The translations under genes and the position numbers were made by a program. 6,068 nt of DNA. Source: Enterobacteria phage WA13. Positions 2,980 through 6,068 of the stretch are shown piece by piece (positions within the stretch are counted from its first letter, which is position 1; every line of letters begins with the position of its first letter). The notes under the pieces were generated by a model. The model did not search any database, was not told the origin of the DNA, and was given only the letters and a program-made list of their open reading frames with translations. Location: sequence record NC_007821.1, one strand, 5' to 3'.

Positions 2980-3054
2980 ATGAAGAAAGCTCGTCGTTCC
3001 CCTTCTCGTAAGAAAGGCGCTCGTCTCTGGTATGTAGGCGGTTCTCAATTTTAA
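2980..3054 (+). CDS. J: DNA-binding/packaging protein J (small basic protein)
   Basis: ATG 2980, two nt after the D stop. MKKARRSPSRKKGARLWYVGGSQF (24 aa), TAA 3052-3054. The C-terminus GARLWYVGG.QF matches phiX174 J; the short length fits the G4/alpha3 type. SD GGAG 2967-2970. Confidence 0.8.
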   Translation: MKKARRSPSRKKGARLWYVGGSQF

Positions 3055-3059
3055 TTAAC

Positions 3060-3073
3060 GGGGCTTCGGCCCC
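3060..3073 (+). terminator. J-F spacer hairpin GGGGCTTCGGCCCC (UUCG tetraloop); likely weak terminator / mRNA-stabilising structure
   Basis: Perfect 5-bp G/C stem closing a C(UUCG)G tetraloop. No strong U tract follows (tataagg), so termination would be partial. The F Shine-Dalgarno AAGGA lies at 3077-3081. Confidence 0.5.
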
Positions 3074-3088
3074 TATAAGGATTCTTAA

Positions 3089-4372
3089 ATGTCAAACGTG
3101 CAAACTTCCGCTGAACGTATTCCTCACGACCTTTCTCATCTGGTTTTTGATGCAGGCAAAATTGGTCGTTTAAAGGTTGTTTCTTGGACTCCTGTTGTTG
3201 CAGGTGATTCTTTTGAGCTTGATATGATTGGCGCTATTCGCCTTTCCCCGCTTCGTCGTGGCCTTGCTGTTGACTCTCGTGTTGACCTGTTCACGTTTTA
3301 TGTCCCTCATCGTCATGTATATGGTGAGCAGTGGATTGATTTTATGAAGCAAGGTGTTGATGCTGCTCCTTTGGCCCCTGTTCAGTGCTCTCGCGGTTGG
3401 GATAGTGCTCAGTATCTTGCTACTATTCCGTCTAGTAACTTAAAGGTTCCTAAGTTTCTTCATCAAGGTTACCTGAACATTTACAATAATTACTTTAAAG
3501 CTCCGTGGATGGATGACCTGACTTATGCCAACCCGTCTAATATGGAGGGTGAAGATGTTCGTTTTGGTGTTCGTGCATGTAACTTGAAAACTATTTGGAC
3601 TGCTCCGCTTCCTCCGGATACTGAAACCTCTCATTCTATGGAGACTGAAACCAACTCCATTGACATTATGGGTTTGCAGGCCGCTTATGCTCAATTACAT
3701 ACTGAGCAGGAGCGTGATTACTTCATGACTCGTTATCGTGATATTGTTAACGAATTTGGAGGTAGTACTTCTTATGATGCGGATAATCGTCCTTTGCTTG
3801 TTATGCATTCTGAGTTCTGGGCCTCAGGCTATGATGTTGACGGCACCGACCAAAGCTCTCTCGGTCAGTTCTCCGGTCGTGTCCAGCAGACGTTTAAGCA
3901 TTCAGTACCGCGATTCTTCTGCCCTGAGCATGGCACTATGTTCACACTCGCATTGGTCCGCTTCCCGCCGACTCATGAAATGGAGATGCATTACTTAGTT
4001 GGTAAAGAAGATTTGACTTATACTGATTTGGCTTGTGACCCTGCTTTGATGGCTAACTTGCCTCCTCGTGAGGTTAATATGTCTCAGTTCTTCCATTCTG
4101 GAAGTGCTAGTGCTAAGTTTAAGATCGCTGAAGGTCAGTGGTATCGCATGCAGCCTGATCGCGTTGCATTGCCGTATAACTATCTTGATGGTTTTCCGTT
4201 CTATAGCGCGATTCCGTCTGATGATATTAAGCAGCGCGTTCTGGTTAATACTGATAACTACGATGAGGTTTTCCAGTCTATGCAGCTTGCGCACTGGAAT
4301 ATGCAGACTAAGTTTAATTGCACCATTTATCGTAATATGCCGACCACTCGCGACTCTATTATGACCTCTTGA
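3089..4372 (+). CDS. F: Major capsid protein F
   Basis: 427-aa ORF. Long stretches match phiX174 F (MSN.QT.AER.PHDLSH, FTFYVPHRHVYGEQWI, GYLNIYNNYFKAPWM, DIMGLQAAYA, LVMHS..WASGYDVDGTDQ.SLGQFSGRVQQT.KHSVPRFF.PEHGTMFTLALVRFPPT, C-terminal PTTRDSIMTS). Confidence 0.95.
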   Translation: MSNVQTSAERIPHDLSHLVFDAGKIGRLKVVSWTPVVAGDSFELDMIGAIRLSPLRRGLAVDSRVDLFTFYVPHRHVYGEQWIDFMKQGVDAAPLAPVQCSRGWDSAQYLATIPSSNLKVPKFLHQGYLNIYNNYFKAPWMDDLTYANPSNMEGEDVRFGVRACNLKTIWTAPLPPDTETSHSMETETNSIDIMGLQAAYAQLHTEQERDYFMTRYRDIVNEFGGSTSYDADNRPLLVMHSEFWASGYDVDGTDQSSLGQFSGRVQQTFKHSVPRFFCPEHGTMFTLALVRFPPTHEMEMHYLVGKEDLTYTDLACDPALMANLPPREVNMSQFFHSGSASAKFKIAEGQWYRMQPDRVALPYNYLDGFPFYSAIPSDDIKQRVLVNTDNYDEVFQSMQLAHWNMQTKFNCTIYRNMPTTRDSIMTS

Positions 4373-4378
4373 TTATGT

Positions 4379-4392
4379 GGGGCTTCGGCCCC
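4379..4392 (+). terminator. F-G spacer hairpin GGGGCTTCGGCCCC (second identical copy); likely weak terminator / mRNA-stabilising structure
   Basis: Same 14-nt sequence as 3060-3073, followed by cTTTaagg and the G Shine-Dalgarno AAGGA (4396-4400). Confidence 0.5.
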
Positions 4393-4409
4393 CTTTAAGG
4401 ATATTGATT

Positions 4410-4955
4410 ATGTTTCAAGTTTATGTATCTAAACATGTTGCTCCGTTCACCTCTGTGAATCGTGCCTTTTCTATTGCCCCTGCCGCCAATCCCGAAGTTG
4501 TTAACTCTGGTGAGATTGTTGCAGGTCGTTCTACTTTTCGCATTGCTTCTTCTATTGCTTCTGCTTCCAATGGTAGTGGTTTTGCTTTTGTTCAGATGAT
4601 GGATCCGAATTCTCCTGATTCTCAGCAGGTTTTCTCTGTTGCTGCTTCGTTGTCCTTTAGTGTTGATTCGAATTATATTCCTTGTGTTGTTCGTTTTGAG
4701 AGCACTGTTGCTCAGCCTACCAGCTTTGATATTGCAACCGCTGATTTTATTCCGGTTGAGGCTTCTGCCCTTTCTCCTCGTGCGCTTAGCGTTCGCGATT
4801 GTGTTACCGTTGATGTTAAGCCTCGTACTGAAGGCAATAATGTTTTTGTTGGTGTGGTTTTCTTCTCTGCTGCCGCTAATGCTGGTAATGTCACTGGTGT
4901 TGTTTCGATGGCTCAGGTTGACCACGAAGTTACAGCTTTGCAGCCGCTTAAATAA
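4410..4955 (+). CDS. G: Major spike protein G
   Basis: ATG 4410 (MFQVYVSKH.., compare phiX174 MFQTFISRH..) with AAGGA 9 nt upstream, TAA 4953-4955, 181 aa. Conserved CVVRFES, VRDCVTVDVKPRT.GNNVFVG and C-terminal LQPLK. The supplied ORF start at 4377 is a GTG inside the upstream hairpin and is not used. Confidence 0.9.
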   Translation: MFQVYVSKHVAPFTSVNRAFSIAPAANPEVVNSGEIVAGRSTFRIASSIASASNGSGFAFVQMMDPNSPDSQQVFSVAASLSFSVDSNYIPCVVRFESTVAQPTSFDIATADFIPVEASALSPRALSVRDCVTVDVKPRTEGNNVFVGVVFFSAAANAGNVTGVVSMAQVDHEVTALQPLK

Positions 4956-5090
4956 AAGGCTGCCGCACTCCCGGTTAGATGCCTGCCTAGTGTAGGGCAG
5001 ACCGAGCCGTACGGAGATACCCGATAAACTAGGAACGTGGAAGGCGCAAGCCGCCTTCCCTCCTGCTAAGCCCCAAAAGGAGTTACAGCG
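4956..5090 (+). other. G-H intergenic region with stable hairpins; probable complementary (-) strand origin (DnaG primase-dependent, G4-type)
   Basis: 135-nt non-coding spacer, far longer than J-F or F-G. Contains a perfect 8-bp GC-rich hairpin (ggaaggcg / caagc / cgccttcc, 5039-5059), the palindrome ccgtacgg (5007-5014) and a ctgcc/ggcag stem-loop (4984-5000). From memory, the primase-dependent origin of alpha3/St-1/phiK maps between G and H, whereas G4 has it between F and G. H Shine-Dalgarno AAGGAG at 5077-5082. Confidence 0.4.
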
Positions 5091-6068
5091 ATGTTAGGTG
5101 CCGTTGTAGGTGGTATTGCTTCAGCCTTAGCTGGTGGAGCCGCTTCTAAGCTGTTTGGTGGTAAACCTGCCGCTCAAGCCGCTACCGAGTCCTCTGGCCT
5201 TTCTAATGGTCAAGGCGTTATTGGTATGGATCAAGATGCTGGTATTCAGTCAGCTATTCAGGGCTCTAATGTTCCCAATGGTCAGATTCCTGCCCCCACG
5301 CAGACTGGTGGCGTTATGTCTGATGCTAAAAATATGATTAAGAATGCTGGTAAAGATTTGCTTGATGGCGTTATGACCGCTGGAAGTGATCGCATTAAGC
5401 AGGCATTGGTTGATAAGTTGAGTGGTAACGATGCAAAGAAACAAGGACAAGCAACCCGTGATTACTTGGCTGCGGCCTTCCCTGAGCTCAATGCATGGGA
5501 ACGTGCTGGAGCTGGTGCTTCCGGTGCCGGATTGGAGTCTTCCGGCCAGAATCAGCAAAAGGAGTTGATGCGTATGCAGCTGGATACTCAGAAGGATATT
5601 GCTAAGATGCAAATGCATAATAATTTGCAGATTGCTGGTATTCAGTCCGCTACTTCTCGCGAGAATACGAAGGATTCAGTTTATGCTCAGAATGAGATGC
5701 TTAAATTTAATCAACAGGAGTCACAGGCACGCGTTGAGTCTATCCTCGCCAACACTGACCTTACGGCTAAACAGGCTGCCCATGAAATTATGAGAATGGC
5801 CCTTACTCGTGCTCAGGAGACTGGTCAGCATTTAACTAATAGTCAGATTATGGCATTGGAGAAAAAAGTTTATGCAGAAATCGGAAAAATTCATCAAGAT
5901 ACTCAAAACGCTCGTTATGGTAGCTCTCAAGTTACTGCTGCGGCGAAAGATGTTACGAATATGATTACCGATGCCACTTCTGGTGCTGCCGATTGGGTCT
6001 CTCAACAGTGGAATTCTTTCTTTAAAGATGGCAAGTCTAATGGTATTCCCCTCAATACCAGAAAATAA
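5091..6068 (+). CDS. H: Minor spike / DNA pilot protein H
   Basis: 325-aa ORF with AAGGAG 8 nt upstream. Matches phiX174 H (M.GA..GGIASALAGGA.SKLFGG, RDYLAAAFPELNAWERAGA, IAGIQSATSR.NTKD.VYAQNEML, QNARYGSS). The stop codon TAA is the last three bases of the window. Confidence 0.92.
   Translation: MLGAVVGGIASALAGGAASKLFGGKPAAQAATESSGLSNGQGVIGMDQDAGIQSAIQGSNVPNGQIPAPTQTGGVMSDAKNMIKNAGKDLLDGVMTAGSDRIKQALVDKLSGNDAKKQGQATRDYLAAAFPELNAWERAGAGASGAGLESSGQNQQKELMRMQLDTQKDIAKMQMHNNLQIAGIQSATSRENTKDSVYAQNEMLKFNQQESQARVESILANTDLTAKQAAHEIMRMALTRAQETGQHLTNSQIMALEKKVYAEIGKIHQDTQNARYGSSQVTAAAKDVTNMITDATSGAADWVSQQWNSFFKDGKSNGIPLNTRK

Follow-up and report, generated by a model that had tools for sequence, protein, structure and literature searches.

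Paired T_J-like UUCG hairpins around the capsid gene of phage WA13 as probable weak terminators and mRNA-decay barriers

Why does a microvirus place one and the same 14-nt hairpin on both sides of its major capsid gene? The question is raised by the genome of Enterobacteria phage WA13 (NC_007821.1), in which GGGGCTTCGGCCCC is found in the spacer between genes J and F (3060-3073) and again in the spacer between genes F and G (4379-4392), both on the + strand and both a few nucleotides upstream of the Shine-Dalgarno (SD) block of the next gene. The window, i.e., the whole stretch of DNA that was analyzed, is 6068 nt long and is the complete genome of an alpha3-like microvirus (Microviridae, Bullavirinae, Alphatrevirus). 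The answer reached here is that the hairpins are explained by the paradigm of the phiX174 terminator T_J and are an ordinary, known element. By analogy with that element, both hairpins are likely to be weak terminators and mainly barriers to mRNA decay within the polycistronic rightward mRNA. The features on which the argument turns are the following, with gene coordinates taken from the annotation of coliphage WA45.

3052-3054, + strand: stop codon TAA of J, 5 nt before hairpin 1 (sequence, WA45 coordinates)
3060-3073, + strand: hairpin 1, in the J-F spacer, GGGGC-UUCG-GCCCC, with a 5-bp G/C stem and a cUUCGg tetraloop; by sequence the ortholog of phiX174 T_J
3076-3082, + strand: SD block UAAGGAU of F, with 7 nt from the end of AAGGA to the AUG
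3089-4372, + strand: gene F, major capsid protein, with a hairpin on either side (WA45 annotation)
4370-4372, + strand: stop codon TGA of F, 6 nt before hairpin 2
4379-4392, + strand: hairpin 2, in the F-G spacer, the same 14-mer as in hairpin 1, at the position of phiX174 T_F
4396-4402, + strand: SD block UAAGGAU of G, with 8 nt from the end of AAGGA to the AUG (4410)
4410-4955, + strand: gene G, major spike protein, the cistron downstream of hairpin 2 (WA45 annotation)

The original prediction, made from the sequence alone, had described an identical 14-nt UUCG hairpin on both sides of F, each followed by (T)AAGGAT and then the start of F or G, and both descriptions are borne out. An exact search of the whole genome returned the two copies listed above, and no third copy was found genome-wide even when up to 2 mismatches were allowed; two copies compare with 0.03 expected, and none of 200 shuffles gave two. 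TAAGGAT, whose core TAAGGA occurs at four sites in the genome including those of F and G, follows the hairpin after 2 nt in the J-F spacer and 3 nt in the F-G spacer, and is followed in turn by the start codon after 6 nt (F) and 7 nt (G). As RNA, the 14-mer folds at -9.6 kcal/mol with an ensemble frequency of 97%; as DNA, it folds at -5.1 kcal/mol. In a 20-nt sliding RNA fold scan the two sites scored -10.1 and -9.5 kcal/mol, ranking 3rd and 5th in a genome with a mean of -1.19 kcal/mol (sd 1.57). Both hairpins contain the UUCG loop and the C-G closing pair by which a cUUCGg tetraloop is recognized. An Rfam covariance-model scan of the whole genome at E-values up to 10 gave no match, and neither site has a stem-loop or terminator feature in the GenBank/RefSeq records of alpha3, WA45 and phiX174.

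The identity of the first hairpin can be read from phiX174, in which the same 14-mer occurs at 970-983. According to PMC3606162, nucleotides A986 and C987 of phiX174 come directly after the first termination signal and belong to the T-tail of that signal. Given that these nucleotides fall 3 and 4 nt past the 3' end of the 14-mer, the phiX174 14-mer is T_J, and the WA13 J-F hairpin is, on the grounds of its sequence, a T_J ortholog that is identical letter for letter. The literature on phiX174 describes four non-stringent Rho-independent terminators, T_J, T_F, T_G and T_H. The work of Hayashi et al. (1983), as summarised in PMC3335065, indicates that the most stable phiX174 transcripts end at T_J and that disruption of the T_J structure in phiX174 and G4 leads to faster decay of the mRNA upstream. 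Read-through at T_J was 68% at 37 C in phiX174 (PMC3335065), and the block to transcription at T_J, T_F and T_G was put at 20-40% each (bioRxiv 10.1101/2020.03.05.979765). Partial termination together with mRNA stabilisation is the function that we carry over from this phiX174/G4 literature to WA13 by analogy.

The J-F and F-G spacers were compared among 13 alpha3-group database relatives, two metagenomic alpha3-like contigs, phiX174 and four G4-like genomes, with an alpha3-like set of 16 genomes and 32 cassettes (J-F plus F-G). Of two metagenome scans, the one with protein F contributed one G4-like and two alpha3-like contigs, and the one with protein G yielded no additional alpha3-like genomes; an IMG/VR search for further alpha3-like genomes returned only copies of reference genomes. 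The J-F hairpin was found throughout the Bullavirinae genomes compared. Its WA13 14-mer is identical in phiX174, ID2 and ID18, and compensated variants occur in G4 (GUGGGAC-CGCG-GUCCCAC) and ID52 (GGGGGC-UACG-GCCCCC). A short F-G spacer (33-37 nt) with such a hairpin was confined, among the genomes compared, to the 16 alpha3-like ones; the F-G spacers of phiX174 and the G4-like phages are 92-136 nt long and contain unrelated hairpins.

The original prediction had suggested that these spacers be compared in related phages for co-variation, and co-variation is what the comparison revealed. When 18 distinct J-F and F-G hairpins were aligned on the loop, standard pairing was found in 90.7% of the cells and changes on both sides of the pair were found at four of the six stem pairs, an example being the second pair from the loop, where G-C was replaced by C-G in 8 sequences. 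The covariation score was 0.375, compared to 0.116 in shuffles, none of 500 shuffles reached 0.375, and the signal collapsed when the partner was slid by one column. The stems take the forms GGGGC/GCCCC, GGGCC/GGCCC, GGGCCC/GGGCCU and GAGCCC/GGGCUC, and all the natural hairpin variants fold at -7 to -15 kcal/mol. None of the 32 alpha3-like cassettes departs from the UUCG loop, its C-G closing pair or the AAGGA downstream, and the loop of ID52 (TACG) is also of the UNCG type. Because the stem covaries and the UUCG loop does not change, selection on the RNA structure of the hairpins is supported by these alignments, and the invariant UNCG-type loop points to a function at the RNA level. The DNA analogue of a UUCG or UNCG loop is not known to have the extra stability.

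How would such hairpins act? They would lie in the rightward polycistronic mRNA that spans D, J, F, G and H, and each would form right behind the ribosome that leaves the upstream stop codon. There it would terminate a minority of RNA polymerases, an effect that the poor U-tract should keep weak, and it would stop 3'-to-5' exonucleases, so that mRNA segments ending at the hairpin (through J or F) would outlast the segments downstream. Termination and the block to decay would together give a falling mRNA dosage, D/J > F > G, which would fit the stoichiometry of the capsid. The F-G copy may, by the same analogy, do the job of T_J once more in the alpha3-like phages, and protection from decay probably dominates over termination. 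The UAAGGA is the ordinary ribosome-binding site of the following gene. Its closeness to the hairpin reflects compaction of the spacer and no fixed geometry, because within the subfamily the gap between hairpin and AAGGA can be as short as 1 nt and as long as 7 nt. Thus, the hairpin-plus-ribosome-binding-site cassette of the original prediction is real as a repeated combination of 14-mer and TAAGGAT and not as a fixed device. The claim that the hairpins are inefficient terminators and 3' stabilisers is supported, as a presumed function in WA13, by the literature on phiX174 T_J, the covariation and the invariant UUCG loop. The further claim that they set the F:G:H mRNA ratios needs to be divided: the F-G hairpin may well affect F:G, the J-F hairpin would instead affect D/J:F, and G:H depends on the separate G-H spacer.

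Several observations weigh against this functional interpretation. A G/C-rich stem-loop as in a canonical terminator is present (5 G/C pairs, a tetraloop and the folding energy given above), but the sequences 3' of the stems are poor in U (UAUAAGGA, with 2 U in 8, and CUUUAAGG, with 3 U in 8), so that a canonical U-tract (at least 5 U in the 8 nt directly 3' of the stem) is found at neither hairpin, and a simple terminator scan of WA13 listed neither of them. The z-scores from dinucleotide shuffling were weak (-2.5 for the hairpin alone and -0.8 for the F-G spacer). In phiX174, a model fitted to RNA-seq data put the termination strength of T_J near zero (PMC11527146), and saturation mutagenesis scored only 14.6% of terminator substitutions as detrimental. 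The DNA fold of the 14-mer leaves room for a role in the single-stranded genome. Some of these points can be accounted for. The experimentally defined T_J of phiX174 is likewise missed by the simple terminator scan, so the failure of the scan argues for weak termination alone and not for absence of function. CUUCGG hairpins with halves split into purines and pyrimidines persist through dinucleotide shuffling (PMC12170181), which explains the weak z-scores. The low share of detrimental substitutions in phiX174 suggests that the contribution of the hairpins to fitness may be small.

The single-stranded genome brings the origins of replication into consideration. In G4, the F-G spacer is annotated with an RNA-primer site and the origin of complementary-strand synthesis. 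No homology to this origin module was found in either WA13 hairpin spacer; it is the WA13 G-H spacer (4956-5090, 135 nt) that aligns with the F-G spacers of G4 and ID52, with a mean column identity of 84% over five aligned sequences. Two segments of this G-H spacer, 4982-5001 and 5040-5059, fold as stable hairpins. As judged from these alignments, the origin module occupies different spacers, G-H in alpha3-like and F-G in G4-like phages. Because the module lies between G and H in alpha3-like phages, their F-G gap holds a minimal T_J-like hairpin and a ribosome-binding site alone. That intergenic modules such as the T_J-like cassette and the origin module moved between spacers during the evolution of the Bullavirinae is a further but improbable reading.

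Against this background, two other kinds of function have to be weighed against weak termination and protection from decay. One is a role in translation, in which the SD block would be insulated or presented by the hairpin, or a mini open reading frame (ORF), beginning 2-3 nt past the upstream stop codon and ending with the UAA of UAAGGA, would relay terminating ribosomes through the hairpin to the next start by termination-reinitiation coupling. By position (-29 to -16 and -31 to -18), the hairpins do coincide with the 5' edge of the footprint expected of a 30S subunit, ending 2-3 nt before the SD block, and in 29 of the 32 alpha3-like cassettes an ATG precedes or overlaps the hairpin, with 23 of these ORFs stopping at the TAA of TAAGGA. 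In the WA13 F-G spacer the mini-ORF (4375-4398; ATG TGG GGC TTC GGC CCC CTT TAA) begins 2 nt past the F stop codon, covers hairpin 2 and ends with the TAA at 4396-4398 within the SD block of G. The J-F spacers of WA13 (which has AAC instead), WA45 and NC3 lack such an ATG, however, as do phiX174, ID2, ID18 and ID52; no SD sequence precedes the mini-ORF ATG; and in phiK, St-1 and Lilleven the stem is extended to 7 bp (ATGGGCC/GGCCCAT) and the ATG simply belongs to it. Since these AT-rich spacers offer stops in several frames, chance alone would let a mini-ORF end upstream of the gene start, and the variable gap between hairpin and AAGGA argues against a precise geometry. A translational role is, for these reasons, quite unlikely in our judgment. 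Its most specific form is harder still to credit, namely that the J-F and F-G spacers are a relay cassette (stop-AUG-hairpin-UAA(GGA)-AUG) in which a ribosome that has completed J or F reinitiates on a 6-7-codon mini-ORF, melts the hairpin, stops within the SD block and is handed over to the start downstream; if it were true, translation upstream would control both the terminator or stabiliser activity of the hairpin and initiation downstream. We also considered GTG 4377 as the start codon of G, in frame and adding 11 codons that include the hairpin (4377-4409); it is unlikely to be used, because a spacer shorter by 1 nt breaks the frame in NC3, ID21, ID62 and NC29. The other kind of function is that of single-stranded viral DNA, on which the hairpins could serve as landmarks for complementary-strand priming that are free of single-stranded DNA-binding protein, in packaging and condensation by the J protein, or as secondary cleavage sites for A/A*. 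That the + strand is the packaged strand, that the sites rank 2nd and 3rd among 20-nt windows in DNA folding, and that the phiX174 F-G terminator hairpin overlaps the complementary-strand origin and the PriA site would all be consistent with it, and the stretch immediately past phiX174 T_J on the 3' side has been termed an extra-origin A/A* cleavage site (PMC3606162). Yet the homolog of the G4 primase origin, in the G-H spacer, adjoins neither hairpin, and matches resembling the viral-strand origin (up to 3 mismatches) were found only at 1005-1019, within that origin, and at 3737-3751. An A/A* cleavage site beside the hairpins was rejected, there being no origin-like match near either of them. 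A loop of the UUCG/UNCG type, kept as strictly as here, is a mark of stability in RNA. Many larger contigs, presumably from double-stranded DNA phages, also have the 14-mer in intercistronic positions and accompanied by T tails or SD sites. A role on single-stranded DNA is therefore very improbable.

Whatever the function, the exact identity of the two copies calls for an explanation of its own, and the original prediction had offered duplication or strong selection. Concerted evolution by gene conversion or recombination, or a recent duplication, would make the copies identical without independent selection at the two sites. The stems at J-F and F-G are indeed the same in 11 of the 16 alpha3-like genomes, and NC28 and phiK share the alternative stem GGGCC/GGCCC at both sites. 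The flanks match in some relatives as well: TTATG-hairpin-TTTAAGGA is found in SKEH, NC28 and phiK, and flank identity exceeds that of shuffles in phiK, ID32, NC28 and alpha3 (p ~0.006-0.01), in a test whose shuffling also destroys the constrained SD block. In the remaining 5 of 16 genomes (alpha3, St-1, Lilleven, MG945254 and NC29), however, the two stems differ. The alternative F-G stem GGGCC/GGCCC is scattered over the gene F tree (NC28, MG945254 and the alpha3 subclade), and within the WA45 subclade the association between the stem types at the two sites of a genome is not significant (2x2 table 1/0/1/10, Fisher p ~0.17). Outside the 14-mer and the 7-nt SD block, the identity between the two WA13 spacers is at chance level, with 436 of 2000 composition-matched shuffles equal or better. 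Each spacer retains its own flank signature in every genome, so that any conversion tract would have to be 14 nt or shorter. A stem of 5 bp that consists of G/C pairs throughout and keeps the same closing pair can take only 16 forms. The intermediates one step away from the two main stem types slip in register as they refold and lose little stability; stem types should therefore flip easily. With non-identical pairs in these genomes, WA13 flanks at chance and so few stem forms, exact identity is poor evidence of duplication. The two cassettes may plausibly descend from one, although this is unproven; neither duplication nor concerted evolution by gene conversion found statistical support, and it is unlikely that either of them, in place of independent selection, accounts for the identity. 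The selection half of the earlier alternative is what the covariation and the invariant loop uphold.

The rest of the genome provides the setting. WA45 is 99.3% identical to WA13 over the full length, and its gene coordinates apply unchanged; NC3, ID32, NC35, ID21, NC28, ID62, NC29, alpha3, phiK and St-1 are 85-94% identical to WA13. The gene order is the standard one for Alphatrevirus, and every gene lies on the + strand, which has the sense of the mRNA and is also the one packaged. In addition to F and G, the WA45 annotation places the following genes.

759-2243, + strand: gene A
2270-2476, + strand: gene C
2520-2978, + strand: gene D
2980-3054, + strand: gene J
5091-6068, + strand: gene H

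The viral-strand replication origin (30 nt, 1002-1031) lies inside gene A and is conserved, with 2 mismatches compared to phiX174. The spacer between C and D is 43 nt long in WA13, 73 nt in NC3 (2477-2549) and about 233 nt in NC29 (2480-2712), differences that mark it as an insertion site in the WA13 clade. In a neighbour-joining tree of gene F, G4 clustered with the WA45-like subclade and not outside all the alpha3-like phages, which suggests mosaicism or recombination of capsid genes among Bullavirinae genera.

The H-A region (1-758, 758 nt) contains ORFs at 65-433 (122 aa), at 138-509 (123 aa, in another frame and overlapping the first) and at 523-699 (58 aa), which go without annotation in the WA45 and alpha3 records but appear as hypothetical proteins in those of Lilleven and MG945254; a match to a PHROG family was obtained for none of the three. 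A 15-bp hairpin at 26-60, about 25 nt past the H stop codon, folds at -20.8 kcal/mol (z -6.3), and its 3' arm contains AGGAG (52-56), 8 nt upstream of the ATG of the 122-aa ORF. It resembles T_H of phiX174, the 3' stem of which overlaps the ribosome-binding site of gene A. At the other end of the region (696-759), a near-consensus sigma-70 promoter (TTGACA-18 nt-TATATT, 11 of 12 matches) is followed by a hairpin (726-750), TTTTTT and the ATG of gene A at 759, with the promoter placed before the terminator as in pA/T_H of phiX174.

As a contribution to knowledge of the microviruses, the result is a modest addition, i.e., that Alphatrevirus puts a T_J-like hairpin in the F-G spacer, and it matters little beyond annotation. 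The J-F and F-G spacers of WA45- and alpha3-like phages can now be annotated by homology as carrying T_J-type hairpins, the latter at the T_F position. The alpha3-like phages also provide a natural system in which a putative F-G terminator or stabiliser is free of a replication element. Such a system could help to separate termination from mRNA stabilisation and could serve the refactoring of microvirus genomes.

Among known systems, phiX174 T_J is the closest counterpart of hairpin 1. Both follow the J stop codon, precede the SD block of F and consist of the identical 14 nt, and the downstream gene and the polycistronic context are alike. They differ in the 3' tail, which is UUACUUGAGG in phiX174 and UAUAAGGAUU in WA13, with fewer U in WA13, and in the gap to AAGGA, which is 7 nt in phiX174 and 3 nt in the WA13 J-F spacer. 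Hairpin 2 shares with phiX174 T_F its position between F and G and presumably a role in lowering G relative to F. The sequence of T_F is, however, unrelated; its spacer is 110 nt long, with long AT-rich hairpins and others, compared to 37 nt in WA13, and T_F overlaps the complementary-strand origin and PriA site, in contrast to WA13 with its origin module in the G-H spacer.

More widely, the WA13 hairpins belong with the CUUCGG hairpins, RNA hairpins of extraordinary stability that have been linked to a variety of biochemical processes (Tuerk et al. 1988 PNAS 85:1364). What the members of this class share with the WA13 hairpins is a short G/C stem capped by a C(UUCG)G tetraloop; the class is defined by thermodynamics and implies neither homology nor a single function. 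CUUCGG hairpins reportedly also lie between cistrons of phage T4. Repetitive extragenic palindromic (REP) elements, as between malE and malF, are intercistronic stem-loops that shield upstream mRNA from 3' exonucleases and thereby allow differential expression within an operon. The logic of a barrier to decay would be the same in WA13, whereas REP elements are longer, imperfect palindromes of a dispersed host repeat family and the WA13 element is a minimal 14-nt tetraloop hairpin. The exact 14-mer is also present in at least 120 other IMG/VR viral contigs. Among 127 listed occurrences, a T-rich tail comes next in 55 and an SD sequence with a start codon within 32 nt in 60, and most lie directly 3' of a stop codon. 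Several of the listed contigs, some of them small, have two or three identical copies (e.g., L109 at 249, 717 and 1118; L063 at 917 and 1277; also L114 and L125), which indicates that genomes commonly use one hairpin sequence more than once. Given these contexts, the succession of stop codon, cUUCGg hairpin, SD sequence and start codon that surrounds gene F in WA13 is a generic intercistronic design of phages.

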